NCBI GenBank assembly: GCA_965662335.1
Contig: CBFIGQ010000001.1
Span: 1 to 41,656 of the forward strand
Direction: 5' to 3'
Length of the DNA: 41,656 bases
From: Minisyncoccia bacterium
Lineage (GTDB): Bacteria; Patescibacteriota; Minisyncoccia; Phycocordibacterales; UBA9973
In this document: one piece after another, positions 652-17,362 of the stretch
Layout of the letters: every line of letters starts with the position of its first letter
How positions within the stretch are numbered: the stretch's first letter is position 1
Notes under the pieces: model-generated
Database searches by the model: none
What the model saw: only the letters and a program-made list of their open reading frames with translations
What the model was told of the DNA's origin: nothing
Program-made: the position numbers and the translations under genes

Positions 652-1011
652 CTATTCGATATCAAATAGCTCAATGCTCGGATTTCCATTGCCCAATAGC
701 ACGACAATTGCCTTCGCATAATAAGATCGTATGCCGTGTGTAAGCGCATAATACTCACATGCACCCACGAATTTGCGGAGCTTATCACGAGAGAGATTCT
801 CTGCCGGATTAATAAAACCGCCCTTCTTCCCTGCTTTAACCTCAAAAAAGTGTATAGTAGAATTTTTTTTCGCAATAATATCTATCTCACCCCGCCCGAG
901 ATGCACATTTCTATCGAGTACCTTATACCCGTTTTGTGTTAAATGCGAGGCCGCAATGTCTTCCCCTTCCTTTCCCAGCTGTTGTGTTTTAGATGAAAAG
1001 ACACGAATCAT
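652..1011 (-). CDS. yraN: YraN family (UPF0102) PD-(D/E)XK nuclease
   Basis: LGKEGEDIAASHL..GYKVLDRN...GEIDIIAKK...FFEVK motifs; start trimmed to MIRVFSS at 1011. Confidence 0.9.
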   Translation of the reverse strand: MIRVFSSKTQQLGKEGEDIAASHLTQNGYKVLDRNVHLGRGEIDIIAKKNSTIHFFEVKAGKKGGFINPAENLSRDKLRKFVGACEYYALTHGIRSYYAKAIVVLLGNGNPSIELFDIE

Positions 1012-2044: not shown

Positions 2045-3553
2045 ATGGAAAAACTCAATACCAACTACGTACCGGAATTTGTTTCACATGTAACAGATCG
2101 GCTCCAAAAGGCAGGGTATGAAGCATACCTTGTGGGAGGATGTGTGCGAGACCTAGTTTTGGGTACAACACCAAAAGATTGGGACCTCACCACCAATGCA
2201 ACACCTGACCAGATACAAGCTACATTTCCAGAACTCAAGACAGTACATGAAAATGCCTTTGGCACAGTAACAGTGCTCAATATGCCACCGGAAGCTACTG
2301 AAGGTGCTTCACGTGAAACTCCTGATTCCAATAACATAGCTCAAATCACGACCTATCGCAGCGAAGGCGGTTACACAGACAGTCGTCACCCAGACCGTGT
2401 TTCATATGAAACAGATATTAGGAAGGATCTCGAGCGCCGAGACTTTACCATGAATGCCATAGCGTGGGATCCTATAAAAGACAGTATTATCGATATATTT
2501 GACGGTATAAAAGACATAAAGGACAAAATAATACGGTGTGTCCTTGATCCGAATACACGTTTCCAAGAAGACGCGCTTCGTATGCTCAGAGCTGTACGTT
2601 TTTCCACAACACTCTCGTTTGGTGTTTCATATGAAACACTGGAGGCTATTGGGGTTCACCATGGGCTCATACGAAATGTATCGGGCGAGCGTATTCGCGA
2701 TGAATTTCTTAAAATTATTGAGTCCGAAGCGCCAGCCTCAGGAGTTGACCTCCTTCACAAGACTGGTCTCCTCAGTCATATCATTCCAGAACTTCTCGAG
2801 GGTGTAGGATGCGAGCAGAAGGGAGCGCATATATATGACGTCTACCAACACCTTCTCCACGCCCTCCAGCATGCAGCAGACAAGGGCTTTCCTTTAGTAG
2901 TGCGCCTTGCGGCGCTATTTCATGATGTTGGCAAGCCCGCGACCCGTAGGTACGACCGCTCAAAGGATAAATACACTTTTTTTGGGCATGAGGTAGTAGG
3001 AGCTCGCATGACGCAAAAGATCCTTGAGAGGCTTCGTTTTGACCGTGAAACCGTTACACGTGTAACATCGCTTGTGCGAAACCACATGTTTTTCTCAGAT
3101 ACTGAGCAGATCACACTCTCAGCAGTACGACGCATTATCCAAAAGGTTGGAGCCGAGCACATCTGGGCGCTCATGGAGGTGCGAGAGTGTGACCGGGTAG
3201 GGATGAAAAAGGCCGAAGCTCCGTATCGCCTTCGCAAGTACCACGCTATGATCGAGGAGGCGCTCAGGGACCCTATCTCGGTAGGACAGCTCAAGATAGA
3301 CGGTGCCTACATGATAGAGGTGTTACACATGAAACCGGGACCCCGCATGGGCTGGATCCTCCATGCACTCCTTGAGGAAGTCCTCGAAGACCCGAGCCTC
3401 AACACCGTCGAGAAACTCTCAGAACGAGTCAAAGACCTCCAAGAACTCACCGATGCCGACCTGAAAAAGCTTGGCGAGAAGGGCAAGGAGAAAAAGGAAA
3501 TTACGGAACAAGAGGAAGTAAAGAAGCTCCGAAACAAGCACAACGTTAAGTAA
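2045..3553 (+). CDS. cca: CCA tRNA nucleotidyltransferase (class II) with HD domain
   Basis: YLVGGCVRD, DWDLTT, DLERRDFTMNA, RFQEDALRMLRAVRF, ERIRDE, LFHDVGKP, GHEVVGA. Confidence 0.95.
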   Translation: MEKLNTNYVPEFVSHVTDRLQKAGYEAYLVGGCVRDLVLGTTPKDWDLTTNATPDQIQATFPELKTVHENAFGTVTVLNMPPEATEGASRETPDSNNIAQITTYRSEGGYTDSRHPDRVSYETDIRKDLERRDFTMNAIAWDPIKDSIIDIFDGIKDIKDKIIRCVLDPNTRFQEDALRMLRAVRFSTTLSFGVSYETLEAIGVHHGLIRNVSGERIRDEFLKIIESEAPASGVDLLHKTGLLSHIIPELLEGVGCEQKGAHIYDVYQHLLHALQHAADKGFPLVVRLAALFHDVGKPATRRYDRSKDKYTFFGHEVVGARMTQKILERLRFDRETVTRVTSLVRNHMFFSDTEQITLSAVRRIIQKVGAEHIWALMEVRECDRVGMKKAEAPYRLRKYHAMIEEALRDPISVGQLKIDGAYMIEVLHMKPGPRMGWILHALLEEVLEDPSLNTVEKLSERVKDLQELTDADLKKLGEKGKEKKEITEQEEVKKLRNKHNVK

Positions 3554-6793: not shown

Positions 6794-7702
6794 TTACTGT
6801 GATTTGCTGTGGAATTTCTTGTGTACTTCGCGGAGCTGCTTGTCGGTGATGTGGGTATAGACCTGAGTTGTGGCGATATTGGCATGGCCGAGCATCATTT
6901 GTACGGAACGGATGTCGGCACCATTACTGAGCAAGTTGGTCGCGAAGGAGTGCCGCAGTACGTGCGGGGTGACTTTCTTTGAGATGCCGGCCTTTATAGA
7001 GTACTCGCGGACGATGCGCTCAATAGAGCGGGGGGTGAGCCTTGAAGCCTCCTTGTTTTTGGCAATATTTACAAACATGGCTTCTTCCATATCCTTGCGA
7101 GCCTTCAGGTATGCTTTGATTGCAGTTCTCGCATCATCAGAAATGAATACAACACGAACCTTTTCACCCTTTCCGCGGATAGAAAACTCGTCTCGCGAAA
7201 GGTCGAGGTCACAGTTTAGCGAGCACAGCTCGGCAAGACGAAGCCCTGTCGAGAAAAAGAGTTCAAGGAGCGCCTTGTCGCGAAGTCCTTTGAGGGTTGA
7301 GAGGTCGGGAGACTTGAGGAGTCTATTGAGCTCATCAATAGAGATGAGATCGAGGTGGCGAGCGCCCACTTTTGCAAGCTCGATAATATCTGGTGCGACC
7401 GCATCAATGTTGCGTTTGCGGCAATACTTAAGGAATGACCGGAGTGCAATCATGTAGTAGTTTTGGGTATTCTTTTTCATGGTTGCCGCAGACTGCCCAC
7501 GGACTTTTACTCCAGGTGCGCGGTTGAGCCGGAGGCGAAACTCACGGAGGGTGTCTTCACTAATATCCTTCACCTTTTTGATCTGCATATCCTCGGCAAA
7601 ACGGGTGAGGTAATGGTCGTAGTTTTCAACGGTCTTGAGGGATCGACCTTTTTCTATCTCGATGTACTCGAGGAACTGACGCTTTGCGGTAGCAAACTCC
7701 AT
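6794..7702 (-). CDS. XerC/XerD-family tyrosine recombinase
   Basis: N-terminal SAM-like domain (FLEYIEIEKGRSLKTVENY); RDKALLELFFSTGLRLAEL, GKGEKVR, TPHVLRHSFATNLL, VQMMLGHANIATTQVYTH. Confidence 0.95.
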   Translation of the reverse strand: MEFATAKRQFLEYIEIEKGRSLKTVENYDHYLTRFAEDMQIKKVKDISEDTLREFRLRLNRAPGVKVRGQSAATMKKNTQNYYMIALRSFLKYCRKRNIDAVAPDIIELAKVGARHLDLISIDELNRLLKSPDLSTLKGLRDKALLELFFSTGLRLAELCSLNCDLDLSRDEFSIRGKGEKVRVVFISDDARTAIKAYLKARKDMEEAMFVNIAKNKEASRLTPRSIERIVREYSIKAGISKKVTPHVLRHSFATNLLSNGADIRSVQMMLGHANIATTQVYTHITDKQLREVHKKFHSKSQ

Positions 7703-7759
7703 ATATAGAGTATAGCGTGAAATATTGTGCGACATAAGAAAGTAGTTTTTATTCGGCTC

Positions 7760-7825
7760 GAAGATGACATATTTTTTCCGAAAACTCGCTTCGCTCAAAC
7801 AGTTCTCCAAAAATATGTCACCTTC
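7760..7825 (-). repeat. Long inverted repeat enclosing a GCGAAGC mini-hairpin (REP-like element)
   Basis: Minus strand GAAGGTGACATATTTTT...CTGTTTGAGCGAAGCGAGTT...AAAAATATGTCATCTTC; 17-bp arms with one G-T pair. Confidence 0.6.
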
Positions 7826-9982: not shown

Positions 9983-10007
9983 AAAACCCCCTTATTGGGG
10001 GGTTTTT
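9983..10007. terminator. Bidirectional terminator between convergent genes
   Basis: AAAACCCCC-TTATTG-GGGGGTTTT. Confidence 0.75.
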
Positions 10008-10783
10008 GTTGTTGCACTATTCCAAGAGATTTCAAACATCATTCGCATAAAGTCCGCTACAGCTTTATTTTGGATAATGACTGAATGAAGTCCGGCATCC
10101 CAGACTGTATATGATATAACATCTCCCCAAATTGATACGTTTACCTTGGGATCATATAGTTCTTTGGGTAAGAAGCGTATTTCTCGCATCTTAAATTTTG
10201 AATCCTTTACTTCCTCTGCTGAGTACCGACTCTCTGGTTGCAAAAGACGGGCAAACAGTTTCTTTTTCATGCGTTCTTCGCGATACTGTTTGAGCCTATC
10301 TCGAGCAACCGTGAAATACTGGGGATCTCCACCGAATCGAAGCACTTCACTACCCTTGGGTTGCTTGAGCGACCGATAAAATGTCTCAACGAAACCATCT
10401 TCGCCTTCAAGGTGCTCTATTTCTATCGGTTCTGCCCCAAGAGCAACAGGGAACAGTGCGGCGAGCTTGGGCGCAATGGTTTCAAATGAAGATTTCTTGA
10501 TCGCAATCTGGTTTTCTTCGTATGACAAGTAATTTTTGATCGACCTGGGGTGCTCAATATAGAAATTGCGCCGTTTGCCACTTGCCACTACTTTCAAGAC
10601 GCCGCGCTCAAGGAGCTGCTTGCAGGCGAGCTGGACGGACGAGCGGGGAAGAGCGAGTTCGTTGGTAATATCTTGAATCCCTGACATATTCTTTTTGAGC
10701 AGGAGCATGACGACCTGTGTTTGTGTTCTATCGAGTCCGATCTCAGATAGCGTCTGCCGTATTTCTTGGGGTATATTGAGCAT
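9992..10783 (-). CDS. TrmB-family transcriptional regulator (wHTH plus C-terminal PLD-like/effector domain)
   Basis: LSEIGL..wHTH LPRSSVQ..L.ERGVL; HLEGEDG; RMKKKLFARLL; IRFLP; IWGDVI; SVIIQNKAVADFMRMMFEISW. Confidence 0.85.
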   Translation of the reverse strand: MLNIPQEIRQTLSEIGLDRTQTQVVMLLLKKNMSGIQDITNELALPRSSVQLACKQLLERGVLKVVASGKRRNFYIEHPRSIKNYLSYEENQIAIKKSSFETIAPKLAALFPVALGAEPIEIEHLEGEDGFVETFYRSLKQPKGSEVLRFGGDPQYFTVARDRLKQYREERMKKKLFARLLQPESRYSAEEVKDSKFKMREIRFLPKELYDPKVNVSIWGDVISYTVWDAGLHSVIIQNKAVADFMRMMFEISWNSATTKTPQ

Positions 10784-10873
10784 AAAATGACAAATATTTT
10801 TGTTAAATGAGTAAAATATACTTAAAAATGCTTTTATATCAATATGATACCATTTTGTATATAACAAAGTATA

Positions 10874-10902
10874 TTGACATATCTATCCTAAGCTGGTATT
10901 CT
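10874..10902 (+). promoter_or_regulatory. Strong sigma70 promoter
   Basis: TTGACA (10874-79), 17 bp, TATTCT (10897-902) with TGn extension; predicted start ~10909. Confidence 0.8.
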
Positions 10903-10908
10903 GATCTC

Positions 10909-11370
10909 AGAACATTGAAATAAACCTTTTCGAGAGGCGACTACTGGGAACTTGAACCGACTTCCCGGTAGCCGCTTCTTGAGAAAGAAGCAGAAAATGG
11001 TTGTCGTCAGTCATTCGGCAATGTTTGCCTTACTTAGGTGGACGCGATAATCCCTCTTGGGATATCAAAGTAGGACTTGTTCCAAAAATGACTATTTCTT
11101 TAAAAGCAGGCCGGCGACCAACCGGCAAGTAGAACGTCAGTTCATCGCCAACTGAGCGGTGAATAGGTGAGAGGAGTTACGACTCCTCAAGAAGTGCCAC
11201 CGGCATATCCGAATGACTGACTCGAGAGCTGATCACTGTTCGAGGAGCAACTTTTGTTCCTTGCGCAGGGAACACTAGACGCGTCGACAAACTGGCACGT
11301 ATATACCTAGCGTGTTTTCAGTAATGAAAACAAAGGGTTCGGAGAAGCCGAAAAACGGCTTCTCCTTTCT
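10909..11370 (+). ncRNA. Putative large structured RNA or 5' leader of unknown family
   Basis: No plus-strand ORF of 60 aa or more; 24-bp hairpin 10927-10984 with G-U pairs on the plus strand; perfect 13-bp long-range helix 11006-11018/11209-11221; about eight further hairpins. Confidence 0.65.
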
Positions 11371-11437
11371 ATCAAAATCTTGAGCTAGTGTTCGAGGTTT
11401 TGTAGAGAATTGATCTTTAAACTTTAAAATAATAACG

Positions 11438-12364
11438 ATGAATACGACAAACGTTTCAGACAGCATGCAGTTTTCACTCGGGGTTGATCCTGTTGATCTT
11501 GAATGGGTCACCGTCCTAAAGAAAAAAATAGATGCACTTCCAAATGCAGAAGATTTCCGTGACGTACACATGATTTGCATTGAAAATAGTGCCAATGGCA
11601 ACCATTTGCAAAATGCATATGGCGTGACTATTGCAATGAATATGCTTCGGAAAGAGCCAAACGCAAAGATTCTTCTGTACGGCGTGTTGCCAATGGAATA
11701 CCTTCGCAGGAAAAAACCAGAGATCGATATTGTGCTCAAACACGACAATGTTCGGCTGATGGAAATTCCTTTCAGGTTCGAAGACCTGGCAACAGCATTT
11801 CAGAAACCGAATGAAGTTTCAATGCAAGGATACACGGCAACCGATGAAGCAAAGAAATACATCAGCCACATTTTCCACGACTTAAAGTATGTTCCAAACT
11901 GGGATACCCCAGCAGCATACGGAAACGCAAAGTTTCAAAGCATCATGGAGAAAGTGAAAGAGTATTTCCCAAGTTTCGCTCAATGCGAACCCGCGATCAT
12001 TATTGAATTTCTCAAGTCAGTCTCTGACTCCAGGGAAGAGGTAATGAAAGGAGTGAAGCTTTCCGGTGTGTACTGCGATGTAGAAGGTACGGTGCTTGTG
12101 GAAGGAAAAGTAAACGAGAAAGTAGTTGCAATGCTTGCGCGTTACGAAGGGCAAGGAAAAACTATTATGCTATGGAGCGATGGCGATATCAAGGTGCTCG
12201 CGGAAACGCTTGCAAACCTTGGCATCACTTACCCGCTTACAAGCAAGTTTGACCATGCAGGAGCGATTGCTGAGATCGTCATCGACGACCAGGATGAGTT
12301 CACCTTTGGGGCGCGCACCAAGATTGCCGCAGAAACCTTTCTCAGGGCTGCTGACATCGCGTAG
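11438..12364 (+). CDS. Hypothetical protein: receiver-like N-terminal region plus C-terminal HAD-like domain
   Basis: GVYCDVEGTVL (HAD motif I-like), IMLWSDG (motif II-like), EIVIDD (motif IV-like); YGVTIAMNMLRKEPNAKILLYG resembles a receiver alpha3-beta4 segment. Confidence 0.6.
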   Translation: MNTTNVSDSMQFSLGVDPVDLEWVTVLKKKIDALPNAEDFRDVHMICIENSANGNHLQNAYGVTIAMNMLRKEPNAKILLYGVLPMEYLRRKKPEIDIVLKHDNVRLMEIPFRFEDLATAFQKPNEVSMQGYTATDEAKKYISHIFHDLKYVPNWDTPAAYGNAKFQSIMEKVKEYFPSFAQCEPAIIIEFLKSVSDSREEVMKGVKLSGVYCDVEGTVLVEGKVNEKVVAMLARYEGQGKTIMLWSDGDIKVLAETLANLGITYPLTSKFDHAGAIAEIVIDDQDEFTFGARTKIAAETFLRAADIA

Positions 12365-12527
12365 TAAAAACGGACCGGTCTCACTTATATCTTCTTTTTC
12401 TAGAGAGGATCCGGTTGGCAACAGAAAGTACGTCTTCGGGCGGAAAAAGTGATTCACTGGCAAGTTCGCTTGCCTTTCTTTTTAAAACCAATAAGAAATT
12501 AATGGTTTTAAAAGGGAAGTAGTTTAA

Positions 12528-12555
12528 TTGACTATTTCTTATAAAATGTTATAAT
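12528..12555 (+). promoter_or_regulatory. sigma70 promoter
   Basis: TTGACT...TGTTATAAT upstream of 12571, just after a long hairpin at ~12474-12519. Confidence 0.65.
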
Positions 12556-12570
12556 AAAATTGATTAGAGT

Positions 12571-12867
12571 ATGACAAGAACGGTTACATCGTCCATCCTA
12601 TGGGCGATCGCAGTACTTGGCTTGATGGCGTTGGCGGGATATGCCGGATACTATGCAATGCACACGACTGGCCGCACGCAATCGGGCTGGGACATGTGCT
12701 TGTGCATAGTTGGCTTTTTATTTGTAATGGTATTGGACCTCAATGACTACAGAGGAGGGAACTGGCTGCCTAAAGTACTAGGCGTGCTAGCTATCCTCCT
12801 GGCAGTAATATTTGGGGTACATTACTTTGCAGGAGAAGCCGGCCTTAAAGCGCTGCTCGAATGGTAG
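12571..12867 (+). CDS. Small membrane protein, three TM helices
   Basis: Three hydrophobic segments in 98 aa. Confidence 0.75.
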   Translation: MTRTVTSSILWAIAVLGLMALAGYAGYYAMHTTGRTQSGWDMCLCIVGFLFVMVLDLNDYRGGNWLPKVLGVLAILLAVIFGVHYFAGEAGLKALLEW

Positions 12868-13001
12868 TATAGATAACCAAAAATATCTATAAGGTTTTTG
12901 CTGACACCTCATTGTAAAGTCGGCATCATTTTTGAGCTCTTAATACTTTTATTGAGGGTTCAAAATCGGAAATTTAGTTCTTTAACGTTAAAACTAAACG
13001 T

Positions 13002-13796
13002 ATGCTTTCATTGGAATCTTTTAAGGCAAAGGCCTTTGAACTGTTTGGAGCAGAAGAAGCGAAGATGACCTCTTCAGATCCAATTTCATTTCTTTATGCT
13101 CAAGAATGGAACATTCCGAATGGTTCGGCATTTCCTGAAGATGAGATGGCACGCATGAATGTGCGTCTCGATGACAGAGGGTGTTTCGGTAGAGCAGTAA
13201 AAGCTGCAGTTTTGGTTGAGAAATATTTTCCTGGTGAACAACTTATGTATGGAGAAGTGCTCGAGGATTTGCTCAGAGCAATGCTTCTCCAAGACATTAC
13301 ACCAGCGAACTGGCACGATGACACGTATATTGCTGAAATACTTCAGTATGAAAATCCGCACGCGATTATCGTATGCGGCAGCAAGCAATTTGATCCGCTC
13401 TTTCTTTCGCTCGATGCAACACCTGCACGGTGTAGGCATCCTCGAATAGCAGAGCACGATATATGGAACGGCTTATATGCCACATATCTGACAAGCTATG
13501 CAAACATTGTGGATTCTGAAAAAGGATCCGTGGAAAGTATTTCCATTTTGCGTATAGCAGAAAAGATGTGTCCTTCTCTAATACTTACACAAGAACTCAT
13601 AGCTTCTCGGCTTGGTATGCTTCAACTATTTCATGAATCAATTCCGATTCTTGAAGAAGTTGCAAAAAAGCGCACCGATGCAAAGATTTTATTTATTTTG
13701 TGGATGTTGACTGAGAAACCATACTATCGTGATCAAATTGTTACACTATACGACAAACAAATGCTCAATTTCTTAACCAAAATGTATGTAGTATGA
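13002..13796 (+). CDS. Putative transglutaminase-like (Cys-His-Asp) protein with helical/TPR-like C-terminus
   Basis: RGCFGRA ... PHAIIV ... QFDP order and spacing of a papain/transglutaminase-fold triad. Confidence 0.55.
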   Translation: MLSLESFKAKAFELFGAEEAKMTSSDPISFLYAQEWNIPNGSAFPEDEMARMNVRLDDRGCFGRAVKAAVLVEKYFPGEQLMYGEVLEDLLRAMLLQDITPANWHDDTYIAEILQYENPHAIIVCGSKQFDPLFLSLDATPARCRHPRIAEHDIWNGLYATYLTSYANIVDSEKGSVESISILRIAEKMCPSLILTQELIASRLGMLQLFHESIPILEEVAKKRTDAKILFILWMLTEKPYYRDQIVTLYDKQMLNFLTKMYVV

Positions 13797-13987
13797 CACG
13801 TTCGGACTTGTCACCCGCGATGCAGAAGGCATACGACGCCCTTCCACCCGAAGATGGAGCTGCCATGCTCAAGGACTGGGAAGCCCTACATAACGCAACT
13901 ATACGGGCTGCCATTTCTCAGGTTATGGCGCGCAACAATTCGCACAATGCAGGGAAGCATGTGCTGGAAGTGCAAAACAGAAATTAA
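13793..13987 (+). CDS. Small hypothetical protein
   Basis: ATGA overlap with the upstream gene (translational coupling), 64 aa. Confidence 0.6.
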   Translation: MTRSDLSPAMQKAYDALPPEDGAAMLKDWEALHNATIRAAISQVMARNNSHNAGKHVLEVQNRN

Positions 13988-14102
13988 TTCCCAAAGGAAT
14001 ACGGACGAGCCTATCAGTAAAATCGTCCACATTTTAGAGCTCATGAATAATTCGTGGTCTCTAAATGAAGTAATCTATTTGTTCATTTTTAAACTTAATA
14101 GC

Positions 14103-14333
14103 TTGAAAACAAAATCTGTAATCAAACGTGCAATGATCGCCCTTGTTTTGGGTGCACTACTCACAATTACCGGCGTAGAAGATCATGCTATGAATTTAGC
14201 ACTACGCGGAGAACCTGAATTTGCCGAGAATATATCGTTTCTTGATTATATTCCAGGAACCCTTGTTTTGGGACTTTTATTTTTCCTACTGTCTTTGTGT
14301 CTTACAACTAAAAAAGATGTTACGGAAAGATAG
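14103..14333 (+). CDS. Small membrane protein, two TM helices
   Basis: Probable TTG start at 14103 after the leader module; two hydrophobic segments. Confidence 0.55.
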   Translation: MKTKSVIKRAMIALVLGALLTITGVEDHAMNLALRGEPEFAENISFLDYIPGTLVLGLLFFLLSLCLTTKKDVTER

Positions 14334-14448
14334 GCACTACATAAATGGTTTTGCGTCATGGCAACCTTCGGGTTGCTTTCTTTATCAAGCTCGTATGGTA
14401 AGCGGGTTTGTAGAGAAATTTGATCTTTTCACAAATTAAAAAAACGAT

Positions 14449-14910
14449 ATGAAAAAAGGAACAATTATTTTCTTGATCATTTTACTGGCAATCGGCGGTG
14501 GGATGCTTTGGTATGACATTACAACCTATACCCCATGTGATGTTACACAACGGATATATTCCGAAAAGAACTTTTCGGATCTAAGGGTGACATTCAATCC
14601 CGAACTCTCAACAGTAGATTCGTTCCATGTTGGTGCTCTCTCCTGGGAAACGAGTTGTGTACAAGGAACACTCGAAGAAAATGCTTCCTGGATTGATTCA
14701 AGTTATAAAGTTCTTGCAAAACTAGTATCCCACCAGCCGGGCGGAAGTATCAGATTATCAATAACTATTGAGCATGACGCTATGTTTGGTTTTGATGAGT
14801 GCGAAACCCCCGGAAAGCTGTACATACCTGTCACAGTATACAGTGGAAACAGGGTGAAAATTTTTACACTCCGGTCGGACGGGCCAAAAATTAGAACAAC
14901 AAGAATGTAG
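14449..14910 (+). CDS. Membrane-anchored/exported hypothetical protein
   Basis: MKKGTIIFLIILLAIGGGMLWY signal-anchor. Confidence 0.75.
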   Translation: MKKGTIIFLIILLAIGGGMLWYDITTYTPCDVTQRIYSEKNFSDLRVTFNPELSTVDSFHVGALSWETSCVQGTLEENASWIDSSYKVLAKLVSHQPGGSIRLSITIEHDAMFGFDECETPGKLYIPVTVYSGNRVKIFTLRSDGPKIRTTRM

Positions 14911-14930
14911 CGGTAACCAAAAAAACATTT

Positions 14931-14956
14931 AAGCAACCCTCACCGGTTGCTTTTTT
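14931..14956 (+). terminator. Intrinsic terminator ending the accessory array
   Basis: AAGCAACC-CTCACC-GGTTGCTTTTTT. Confidence 0.8.
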
Positions 14957-14960
14957 AATT

Positions 14961-15326
14961 TTGTGGGCGCATAGTTTCACAGATGAAAAAGATTGTGAGG
15001 GAAAAGTCGGAAAGACATTTTCACAGAGGGTTGTAGAACTTGCACTCATGATCCCAAAGGGGAGAGTCACAACATATGGACATGTTGCACGAGCTGCAGG
15101 TGGGGGCGGACAAGCAGCGCGGAGCGTGACGGGGATTTTAGGAAAAGCATATGCTAGCGGAGAAACGAGAATTCCGTTTCACCGTATCGTATACGCCGGC
15201 GGCAAAGTGTGGACAAATGATGAGTACCGCGCAAAGCGCATGAAGCTCTACAAAGAAGAAGGTATTGAAATTAATCCAAAAGGGTACATCAAAAATTTTG
15301 AAGAAAAACTCTACGAATTTAACTAA
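14961..15326 (+). CDS. MGMT-family DNA-binding protein, alkyltransferase-like (no catalytic Cys); start uncertain
   Basis: IPKGRVTTYGHVA..AARSV; IPFHRIV instead of PCHRV; LYKEEGI. Confidence 0.85.
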   Translation: MWAHSFTDEKDCEGKVGKTFSQRVVELALMIPKGRVTTYGHVARAAGGGGQAARSVTGILGKAYASGETRIPFHRIVYAGGKVWTNDEYRAKRMKLYKEEGIEINPKGYIKNFEEKLYEFN

Positions 15327-15368
15327 TTGACTTTTGTGTGTAGCCGGGTAGAGTACATAAAAAACTAT

Positions 15369-15764
15369 ATGGATACATGTAACCCCACTACGGTTTTTAA
15401 TAGTATTTGTAACCTATATGGAAAGGGTAGTAAAACACCATTTTTCTTTTCACAAATTTTTGAAAGTGCTACATATATTGGTGTAGAAGTTGAGGTAGAT
15501 AAGGCTCCATACGGAAACCCTATATTTGCGATGCACCAGAAAAATGATGAAGCATACTTTACTGTGTTTCATCCAAGTCCCCAGAAACAGTATTATGAAG
15601 ATAAACTTCGTGAATACTTTGAGATCAAGTGCTCGTCTGAAGGAATACGTTATTCAATTGGATCATTTGTATATGCGAAACTAGAGGACAATACTATTGC
15701 TCACATTACCGTCTGGGAGGTCAAAACAATTTTCTACGTATTACGCGACTGGTTACTCGCCTGA
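15369..15764 (+). CDS. Hypothetical protein
   Basis: ATG at 15369; followed by the ACGCACCCG/CGGGTGCGT terminator (15780-15804). Confidence 0.55.
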   Translation: MDTCNPTTVFNSICNLYGKGSKTPFFFSQIFESATYIGVEVEVDKAPYGNPIFAMHQKNDEAYFTVFHPSPQKQYYEDKLREYFEIKCSSEGIRYSIGSFVYAKLEDNTIAHITVWEVKTIFYVLRDWLLA

Positions 15765-15853
15765 TACACTATTACTCGTACGCACCCGCTTCGGGTGCGT
15801 TTTTGTTTCACAATCTTTATCTTTTCTTTATCTCGGTTTTGTAAAATTGTTTC

Positions 15854-17362
15854 ATGGCGTTTTCGCGTATACAGAGCGCGCAGCTTTCGGGACTCGGAGC
15901 AACGGGCGTCGTCGTAGAAACTGATATCAATCGGGGACTTTATATGTTTCAGATCGTGGGACTCCCTGACAAAAGTGTAGAGGAAGCGCGAGAACGTGTG
16001 ATAAGTGCGCTTCGCAACAGTTGTGATATCAACCCCAAAGCCGCCAACCAAAAAGTCATAGTCTCGCTCTCTCCTGCAGAACTGCGCAAAGAAGGAGCGT
16101 ATGTTGACATCGCGATAGCGCTGGGATACTTGGTAGCAAATGAAACTATCACACTCGATGAAACAAGGCGGGTCTTTGTTGGAGAACTCGCGCTCAATGG
16201 AGAAGTGAGGCGGGTACGCGGAGTACTCTCTATCGGGCAATGGGCGATAGAGGAGGGCTACGCAGAACTCTACATACCAGAAGAAAATAAAAAAGAAGCA
16301 GCACTTCTTAGGGGTATATCTATTTTTCTTGTGCCAACACTCGAAAAGCTTGTTGCGCATATACAAGGAAGTGAAAGTCTAGAAACAGTAATTCCGTCAG
16401 AAGATAGTGAAGGCGCACCACTTCCAAGCGAGCTCGACTTTGCACACGTTCGAGGACAGCAGCAAGCAAAGCGTGCGCTCACCATCGCAGCGGCTGGTGG
16501 TCACAACATCGTCCTGTACGGACCGCCCGGTACGGGCAAGAGCATGCTTGCGAAGGCATTTCACGGCATACTCCCCAAACTCTCTACTTCGCACTTTTTG
16601 GAAGTCGCGCGCATCTACTCAAGCATCGGACTTGTTGAAGATGTGCTGCATCAGTATCCGCCGCTTCGCGCTCCGCACCACAGCGCATCGCACGTCGCAA
16701 TCATTGGGGGAGGAAGCACGTTGCGTCCTGGAGATATCACCCTCGCACACAACGGTGTCTTGTACCTCGACGAGTTTCCAGAATTTGATCGACGAGTCAT
16801 AGAGGCGCTACGCGAACCGATAGAGGATGGCTCTATCACCGTTGCGCGCGCAAAGGGAAGTGTGCGTTACCCAGCTCGATTTATTTTGCTTGCCTCGATG
16901 AACCCGTGTCCATGCGGGTATAGAGGAAGCGGTATCAAGCACTGCACATGCTCTGGTGCGGAAATTGCACGCTACAAAAAGAAACTCTCAGGACCTATCA
17001 TCGATCGCATCGATCTGTGGGTACCTGTTTCGCATGTTGCCTATGACTCGCTTTTAGAATCAATAGACACCCGAGAAAGTCCAGGGATTCAGAAAACAGT
17101 AGAAGCGGTGCGCGAGCAACAGTATAAGCGTGGCGCTATGCTCAATGGGTATCTCTCAAGTAAAGACGTACAGCAACATGCATCTCTTTCAAAAGAAGCT
17201 GAAGTGCAGCTTGAGGCCTACGCACACAAACTCAAGCTCTCACCTCGCTCATATATGCGCACCATAAAAGTTGCGCGCACTATCGCAGATCTTGAAGGCT
17301 CAGCAAACATCGAACTCGCACATATCCTCGAAGCACTTCAGTACCGTCCAAAACTTGAATAA
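15854..17362 (+). CDS. comM: ComM/YifB Mg-chelatase-like AAA+ ATPase
   Basis: IVGLPDKSVEEARERV, GELALNG, AAAGGHN, GPPGTGKS, RAPHHSAS, LAHNGVLYLDEFPEF, MNPCPCG, SGPIIDRID, ARTIADL. Confidence 0.96.
   Translation: MAFSRIQSAQLSGLGATGVVVETDINRGLYMFQIVGLPDKSVEEARERVISALRNSCDINPKAANQKVIVSLSPAELRKEGAYVDIAIALGYLVANETITLDETRRVFVGELALNGEVRRVRGVLSIGQWAIEEGYAELYIPEENKKEAALLRGISIFLVPTLEKLVAHIQGSESLETVIPSEDSEGAPLPSELDFAHVRGQQQAKRALTIAAAGGHNIVLYGPPGTGKSMLAKAFHGILPKLSTSHFLEVARIYSSIGLVEDVLHQYPPLRAPHHSASHVAIIGGGSTLRPGDITLAHNGVLYLDEFPEFDRRVIEALREPIEDGSITVARAKGSVRYPARFILLASMNPCPCGYRGSGIKHCTCSGAEIARYKKKLSGPIIDRIDLWVPVSHVAYDSLLESIDTRESPGIQKTVEAVREQQYKRGAMLNGYLSSKDVQQHASLSKEAEVQLEAYAHKLKLSPRSYMRTIKVARTIADLEGSANIELAHILEALQYRPKLE

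Follow-up and report, generated by a model that had tools for sequence, protein, structure and literature searches.

Positions 10909-11370 on the plus strand of a 41,656-nucleotide stretch of DNA from a Minisyncoccia bacterium (contig CBFIGQ010000001.1; we call the whole stretch the window) contain a structured RNA of about 462 nt, counted from its predicted start to the end of the U-rich tail of a terminator. With a probability of roughly 0.55, we read this element as a member of an uncatalogued family of large modular non-coding RNAs (ncRNAs), a stable folded product that acts on its own and is not a sensor for the next gene. The family is in no catalogue. It is new as a family and in its context, and familiar as a kind: the element is longer than 200 nt, is non-coding, and possesses several compensated helices and conserved unpaired letters, as do large structured bacterial ncRNAs, a term that denotes a kind and not a homologous family.

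The source genome is a 755-kb assembly of 84 contigs with a completeness of 98%. Between the gene of a 263-amino-acid (aa) regulator (9995-10783, minus strand) and an open reading frame (ORF) of 308 aa (11438-12364), about 650 bases are without a credible ORF, and an ORF scan of the plus strand from 10909 to 11437 gave nothing but frames of 32-43 aa with TTG starts. A sigma-70-type promoter was located at 10874-10902 on the plus strand. Its -35 element is TTGACA, the spacer is 17 nt, the -10 element TATTCT is extended by TG, and 10 of 12 positions match the consensus. The predicted start, A10909, lies 7 nt past the -10 element. The initial annotation, made from the letters alone, had described this promoter and the lack of a plus-strand ORF, and both descriptions hold. 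The folded, ORF-less stretch behind a near-consensus promoter is thus real. The orthologous loci show the same layout, a TTGACA-type -35 element and then a purine start; this and several other observations on context were made by eye on printed sequence. At the downstream end, an intrinsic-terminator-like hairpin with its U-rich tail occupies 11341-11371 (plus strand). The hairpin has 10 bp (11341-11365) and a 5-nt loop, and 6 of 8 pairs covary. It had been noticed before, is present in the minimum free energy (MFE) structure and was also found by a terminator scan. In addition, a 185-nt contig from an RNA library (a metatranscriptome run) covers 11045-11229, which is the core of the RNA, and contains no sequence of the flanking genes. 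This contig is a weak hint of transcription.

The predicted fold is far more stable than those of dinucleotide shuffles. The MFE of the 467-nt stretch was -183.5 kcal/mol, against -128 +/- 4.8 kcal/mol for 100 dinucleotide shuffles (z -11.6), and no shuffle was as good; the opposite strand gave z -6.5. In the fold of 10909-11420, 23 of the 171 pairs are G-U on the plus strand and therefore become A-C mismatches on the other strand. Most of the helices proposed at the outset reappear in the MFE structure, namely the 5′ hairpin with G-U pairs (10927-10985; 5 of its 26 pairs are G-U), the perfect 13-bp helix 11006-11018/11209-11221, the hairpin with a GUAA loop (11313-11332), and four of the five internal hairpins that had been named. 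The fifth, a TCAGTT/AACTGA pairing, was not supported: the MFE structure has a 9-bp hairpin at 11140-11164 (plus strand) in its place, and the 3′ word forms the loop of this hairpin. The loop is kept in the nearest relative although the stem letters differ, and by eye the hairpin is kept with other stem letters in the loci L014 and L047 (three sequences in total). An outer helix TTGTCG/CGACAA (11001-06/11285-90) had also been suggested. It is absent from both the MFE and the centroid structures, and no partner for it was seen by eye in the nearest homologue.

A BLAST search with the RNA against 40 relatives returned only matches of 19-24 nt. The RNA looked like an orphan because DNA similarity alone had been used; covariance models and the neighbouring protein were needed to find its relatives. 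Three models were built, one of the 222-nt core (R1), one of the 3′ domain (R2) and one of the 5′ hairpin (R3), and the E-values of these home-made models are rough. Among 50 other genomes of the genus, R1 gave one partial match, in genome G019. This match adjoins an orthologue of the divergent regulator and has the same promoter layout. The initial suggestion to seek homologues near TrmB-like genes was borne out, since they were found beside both orthologues and paralogues of the regulator. Orthologues (44-80% identity) are present in 19 of 401 genomes of the family (10 of 121 in a smaller search) and also on 15 metagenome contigs. About half of the orthologue loci read have a long non-coding stretch after the promoter, and the rest reach an ORF within about 150 nt. 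R2 added instances beside regulator paralogues with 20-25% identity (L031, L039, L120, L121 and L122).

The 3′ domain was detected by R2 in 7 of 151 genomes of the family, some of the instances being beside regulator paralogues. In genus g18 it was found in 2 of 151 genomes, which are exactly the two holders of a regulator orthologue, and in genus g195 in 1 of 5 genomes; further R2 searches in these two genera gave no new instance. In a sample of the order, the only genome with a match was that of the window itself, and none was found in 150 others, 149 of which belong to other families. These counts are lower bounds because the strict filters (applied above 40 genomes) lose weak matches. A search of genome contigs for related loci with a single protein yielded one locus. 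Two pattern scans of viral contigs returned 33 and 5 stretches, all unrelated on inspection, so phage contigs showed no sign of the RNA by these two patterns. About 20 phage contigs (L079-L111, about 50% G+C) share a stretch with the exact 17 letters of the GC hairpin and loop of the window RNA; the context of this stretch is unrelated, and no Rfam family matches it. The RNA family has so far been found only in one family of Nomurabacteria-like Patescibacteria. Two RNAs of distant relatives also fold beyond their shuffles (z -5.6 and -6.5).

The related RNAs share a common order of parts: a 5′ hairpin (P0), a purine-rich linker, a small GC hairpin (H2), a variable stretch, a 3′ domain and the terminator. 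P0 lies at 10927-10985 on the plus strand and is 21-29 bp long across the relatives. In a MAFFT alignment of eight sequences (A7; eight consistent rows, with the structure supplied by the author), 94% of the cells were paired and 13 of 23 pairs had changed on both sides, and none of 500 shuffles scored as high. Slid controls were 39-54% paired. Two other alignments were not counted. In the 16-row alignment of the 5′ hairpin (A6), rows were one column off register and L048 and L049 had another hairpin type, and in the R3 alignment (A8), sense and antisense matches were mixed. In all ten loci where R3 listed both strands, the sense strand scored about 20 bits above the antisense strand. In the RNAs beside regulator paralogues (L031, L039, L121 and L122), a further conserved 5′ hairpin module, about 75-110 nt long, precedes P0 by about 100 nt; the window RNA is without it.

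H2 (11110-11126, plus strand) is a conserved 5-bp GC hairpin with a conserved 7-nt loop, which is 7-9 nt across the relatives. In the alignment of 14 sequences (A9, MAFFT), 80% of the cells were paired despite three rows out of register, and eight cells had changed on both sides. The covariation score was 0.382 versus 0.172, and none of 500 shuffles scored as high. The conserved 3′ domain (11282-11340, plus strand) is composed of an A-rich entry, a short closing helix at about 11296-99/11311-14, and the GNRA-capped hairpin 11313-11332. The loop, which is GUAA in the window, is GUAA, GCGA or GCAA among the relatives and AUAA in one of them. Each of the six pairs of this hairpin shows a change on both sides in one or more of the 13 rows. 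For the 3′ hairpin and the terminator together (A5, 13 rows), 92.8% of the cells were paired and 12 of 14 pairs had changed on both sides, against 56-67% paired in slid controls. Covariation among homologues, which had been named at the outset as a test, is thus seen in four helices.

The H2 loop and the entry of the 3′ domain contain complementary letters. Based on the comparison of the sequences, we propose that the loop bases CCA (11118-11120, plus strand) form a pseudoknot with UGG (11293-11295, plus strand) in the A-rich entry. The three core pairs are possible in all 11 RNAs in which both halves are known. L024 is the sole RNA with G at the first loop position and the sole one with C at its partner; L031 is likewise the sole RNA with G at the third position and the sole one with C at the partner of that position. 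In L121, one further G-C pair is added. If this contact is true, the pseudoknot clamps both conserved ends around the variable middle.

The middle is the least conserved part. It ranges from about 200 to more than 900 nt among the relatives, and the shortest RNA measures about 175 nt in total (L016) and the longest measure more than 900 nt (L022 and L023). In the window, a multi-stem domain at 11006-11221 (plus strand) is closed by the 13-bp helix, and the MFE structure places hairpins at 11023-43, 11046-66, 11089-11139, 11140-64, 11171-88 and 11194-11206 (plus strand) inside it. In most relatives, H2 comes directly after the linker. In contrast, about 105 nt are inserted there in the window and supply three hairpins and the 5′ side of the 13-bp helix. 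Therefore, the domain closed by this helix is lineage-specific. The last letters on the 3′ side of the helix form a word that the two nearest homologues also have. The RNA was present in 20 of the 24 public runs listed, from 10 studies. Copies from four runs were compared and were at least 99% alike, uncovered parts carrying no information in this comparison. The one variant, G11110T, occurs in contigs of two runs (X17 and X10) and alters the closing pair of H2, which is also variable among the relatives. The eye-catching 13-bp domain is not one of the conserved parts, which are P0, H2 and the 3′ domain.

No known RNA family accounts for the element. With the 4227 models of Rfam 15 at the gathering score, the only matches in the window were three tRNAs, none of them over the RNA. 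The cmscan-type check proposed in the initial annotation therefore leaves the RNA without a known family. When matches at E up to 10 were allowed, 10750-11500 gave chance-level matches only (E 0.46 or worse, 22.5 bits or less); the best-scoring one had 22.5 bits and E 0.93, for a gathering score of 90. No Rfam family lies over the RNA in the loci of the relatives either. The earlier statement that signatures of RNase P, transfer-messenger RNA (tmRNA) and signal recognition particle (SRP) RNA are missing agrees with this search, in which none of the three matched the region at E up to 10. RNase P RNA (RF00010; contig C47, 117.9 bits) and tmRNA (RF00023; contig C54, 124.6 bits) are found elsewhere in the genome, and one copy per genome is normal. 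The small-SRP (RF00169) and 6S (RF00013) models found no copy in the 98%-complete genome (G000). SRP and 6S RNAs may be divergent in this lineage.

Group I and group II introns, guide RNAs of IscB/TnpB (HEARO) and retron ncRNA had no Rfam match in the region, and the neighbouring ORFs contain no Pfam domain of a nuclease, reverse transcriptase or maturase. The Rfam models of OLE, GOLLD, ROOL, the raiA motif and HEARO matched neither in sequence nor in structure. The type III hammerhead model (RF00008) had no match in 10750-11500 or 11300-16000. In the titles and opening parts of abstracts returned by literature searches, nothing on such an RNA was found.

The divergent regulator gene (9995-10783, minus strand) encodes 263 aa with a winged helix, a long helix and a PLD-like C-terminal domain. 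The Pfam TrmB match was 25.1 bits, against a cut-off of 25.6, and a profile search of the PDB with the regulator returned only winged-helix proteins. A structural model based on nine orthologues had a predicted local distance difference test (pLDDT) value of 81. In a Foldseek search, this model matched TrmBL2 (5bqt_A) over its full length (E 8.7e-14, 267 columns), and its C-terminal part matched PLD-like folds. The original assignment to the TrmB type is thus upheld by a full-length fold match to TrmBL2. TrmBL2 is described as a chromosomal protein and a global repressor (PMC3031468). The regulator has the same size, domain order and full-length fold as archaeal TrmBL2. However, the two share only 13-14% identity, the TM-score is about 0.4 because the domains are placed differently, and the regulator is bacterial and has several paralogues per genome. 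The AT-rich spacer between the regulator gene and the promoter (10784-10873) contains a directly repeated word that is conserved, by eye, in all orthologue loci, and in paralogue loci the repeated word overlaps the -35 element. This word is a candidate operator of the TrmBL2-like protein.

Behind the RNA lies an array of small ORFs, which are mostly without a family and differ in order between genomes. A leader or inter-cassette module (11366-11418, plus strand) bounds the RNA and is not part of the RNA proper. It consists of a long hairpin (11373-11402), extended by the terminator tail (11366-71) pairing with 11403-08, and of a conserved pyrimidine word about 20 nt (20-27 nt across the copies) before the next ATG, which is at 11438 in the window. 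A second copy of the module is found at about 14363-14430, before an ORF at 14449, and a variant at about 12890-12985, before an ORF at 13002. The whole genome has about six copies, and the module also occurs between ORFs in relatives. A second hairpin of the module covaries. The word after the leader hairpin was considered as a -35 element and dropped: by eye, its spacing to a -10-like word is not kept in the relatives.

The RNA is optional in this setting. In the closest relatives, L046 and L065 (identical where read; their regulator is 80% identical), the same promoter is followed by the leader hairpin, the word and an ORF, and the RNA is absent. In L069 and L070, the RNA is placed after a first small ORF. 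L046 has homologues of the 308-aa (64%) and 98-aa (56%) genes of the window, arranged in a different order, and a homologue of the 264-aa gene is present in L024. A search of 201 genomes of the order found the 308-aa protein in that of the window alone, which makes the protein useless as an anchor. By eye, the first cassette of L014, L069, L070, L078 and perhaps L018 encodes a conserved small protein (about 50-55 aa) whose C-terminal end is shared; the window has no counterpart of it. After the 308-aa gene (about 12455-12560), a GC hairpin with a U-rich tail is followed by a near-consensus promoter (TTGACT-16 nt-TATAAT) before the 98-aa ORF, as judged by eye. Thus, the RNA and the 308-aa gene form one unit, and the array comprises more than one transcription unit.

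Hammerhead-III-like sequences were found at unit junctions on the array strand of six related loci, with 34.9-41.2 bits (E 9e-6 to 5e-4), scores that are below the Rfam gathering score of 48.5. They are at 927-980 (minus) in L019, 454-508 (minus) in L050, 676-729 (minus) in L074, 84-138 (minus) in L069, 3618-3672 (plus) in L070 and 2107-2161 (plus) in L120. Their sequences and positions suggest that array transcripts may be cut into units at these junctions. The wider neighbourhood, which includes genes for an Xer-type integrase, an NYN protein, a DksA-like protein and ComM, is conserved. In the window, the regulator and array block has the DksA-like gene on one side and ComM on the other, and in G286 (L124), L014 and L047 it is found beyond ComM. 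The regulator-RNA-array block has moved or been inverted within this neighbourhood. The Xer-type tyrosine recombinase gene (6794-7810) is a member of the neighbourhood and not of the array. The recombinase is conserved across genera (57-73% identity) and never adjoins the array; its orthologue lies 4-10 kb from the regulator in five of the eight orthologue loci examined.

If the element is a stable RNA acting on its own, transcription would begin at 10909 from the strong promoter under the control of the TrmBL2-like protein, and termination or processing near 11366-11371 would release a stable transcript about 460 nt long. The pseudoknot and a GNRA contact would hold it in a compact fold that ties the conserved ends together and leaves the stretch between them free to vary. 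The RNA might then serve as a scaffold or partner of a protein or nucleic acid. In the genome, it behaves as an optional cassette that codes for no protein and belongs to a hypervariable array of small accessory genes, in which the leader/terminator module bounds each unit. A new large ncRNA was also the first option of the initial annotation, and the lack of an Rfam match, the homologues beside regulators, the covariation and the folding energy all support it. A more speculative extension, to which we give a low probability, places the RNA among the cassette types of an undescribed cassette-array system. In such a system, a TrmBL2-like regulator and one strong promoter would drive interchangeable units, coding and non-coding, bounded by the hairpin module or by cutting hammerheads, and the RNA would be a pseudoknot-clamped scaffold. 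Its hypervariable middle would let each lineage recognise a target of its own, such as a host, a phage or a partner molecule.

Several points weigh against the stand-alone reading. The transcript ends, the stability, the regulation by the neighbouring protein, the pseudoknot and any action in trans are all inferred. The support from RNA libraries is the single 185-nt contig, at a depth of 4.3, and DNA is possible in such libraries. The covariation sets are small (8-14 sequences) and their sequences are related. The pair counts of A5 lean towards the structure of the model because A5 was fitted to it. The 13-bp-closed domain is without covariation support, since its copies are at least 99% alike and there is no divergent homologue, and the MFE and comparative readings conflict over 11222-11280. 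The pseudoknot helix is short (3-5 bp) and its sample is small. Finally, the RNA is upstream of same-strand ORFs in every locus seen, which fits a cis-acting leader as well.

Such a leader, an attenuator or riboswitch-like element whose 3′ domain senses a ligand, a protein or an RNA and sets the read-through into the accessory genes, is the rival that we take most seriously, although we judge it clearly less likely. A complex regulatory leader for the downstream array was also the second option of the initial annotation. Apart from the position of the RNA, which in every locus read has a promoter before it and same-strand ORFs after it, this rival is favoured by the conserved 3′ domain directly before a terminator hairpin with a U-rich tail, which is the order of a sensor before its platform, and by the junction letters of this domain, which are conserved while the stems vary. 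The terminator tail can also pair with the word after the next hairpin, so that alternative structures are possible. However, the downstream genes are ORFans without relation to one another; they vary by genome, are shuffled and form no coherent regulated set. L046 and L065 express homologues of two array genes from the same promoter without the RNA, and the unit does not begin with the RNA in L069 and L070. The mean complementarity between the 5′ arm of the 3′ hairpin and the 5′ arm of the terminator was no better within a locus (-5.29 kcal/mol) than between loci (-5.01 kcal/mol), with a permutation p of about 0.32 (8 loci, low power). This test left out L069, a near-duplicate of L070, as well as L031, L039, L020 and the second L120 match, in which one hairpin is missing in register. 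Moreover, riboswitches are not known to have a variable middle of about 200 to more than 900 nt. We prefer the stand-alone RNA on four grounds: a close relative expresses the same genes without it, the genes that follow it are unrelated, it can sit inside the array, and the antiterminator test was negative. Under either reading, the 308-aa gene must be fed by read-through of the terminator.

The remaining explanations fare worse. The structure could belong to the DNA, as a recombination or insertion site of a cassette system (attC-like or Xer-site-like) or as the remains of a mobile element, with the RNA fold as a by-product. The content between the conserved modules does differ among close relatives, the regulator-array block is found on different sides of ComM, the RNA begins, by eye, much as the following leader hairpin does, which recalls a flanking direct repeat, and the tyrosine recombinase gene is near. 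We nevertheless consider this improbable: G-U pairs are frequent and conserved on the plus strand only, the sense strand has an advantage of about 20 bits, a promoter and a terminator frame the element, and the recombinase behaves like a housekeeping Xer-type gene. No attC-type core words were seen, by eye only and without a formal attC search. A functionless structured spacer, in which duplication has gathered hairpins in a recombination-prone region, would suit the hypervariable middle, the optional RNA and the sporadic distribution, but compensatory changes keep four helices and the long-range contact across genera, and the conserved unpaired letters and the GNRA loop point to selection on a three-dimensional fold. 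It therefore has a similarly small chance. Hardly credible is a divergent housekeeping RNA missed by the standard models. The roles of SRP and 6S RNA are formally unfilled in this genome, yet neither matches the region at E up to 10, and the corresponding locus of the closest relative has no such RNA. Universal occurrence would be expected of a housekeeping RNA, and the RNA described here (7/151 and 2/151 genomes) is far too sporadic.

Because the genomes of Patescibacteria are tiny and gene-dense, a conserved folded ncRNA of half a kilobase behind one of the best promoters of the window comes at a cost and is probably useful. Few large structured bacterial RNAs are without a known function, and several have proved to be ribozymes, protein scaffolds or self-assembling particles. 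To these, the present family would add a freely varying middle between conserved ends that a long-range contact brings together, a constant association with a TrmBL2-like DNA-binding protein, and a place in a shuffling array with ribozymes at some junctions. It offers RNA biologists a new class to probe and a marker of a hypervariable accessory locus in candidate-phyla bacteria.

The RNA resembles OLE, GOLLD, ROOL, the raiA motif and HEARO in its length of several hundred nt, its many covarying stems, GNRA-type loops and a long-range contact, its sporadic and lineage-restricted occurrence, and its accessory or mobile contexts. Unlike those RNAs, the family of the window is conserved at its two ends only, with a middle of about 200 to more than 900 nt. 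To our knowledge, neither a link to a TrmBL2-like regulator nor a repeated leader module is known from these classes. With attenuating leaders and riboswitches such as the T-box, the locus shares a promoter, a structured RNA with a conserved domain, a terminator hairpin and genes on the same strand. It differs from them in that the downstream genes are incoherent, the RNA is optional and can lie between ORFs, no co-evolving antiterminator was found, and no Rfam leader or riboswitch matches.

The array as a whole is similar to integron cassette arrays, in which a strong promoter beside a divergent conserved gene is followed by small ORFan units that are shuffled between relatives, each bounded by a conserved imperfect hairpin. 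However, the divergent gene of the window is TrmBL2-like and not an integrase, and the only recombinase nearby is a conserved Xer-type gene 2-10 kb away. The hairpins of the window have strand-specific G-U pairs and are read as RNA, and no core words were seen in them by eye. Type III hammerheads between cistrons are the last parallel. Hammerhead-like sequences are present at the junctions of six related arrays, whereas the RNA and the array of the window contain none and use the hairpin module instead.

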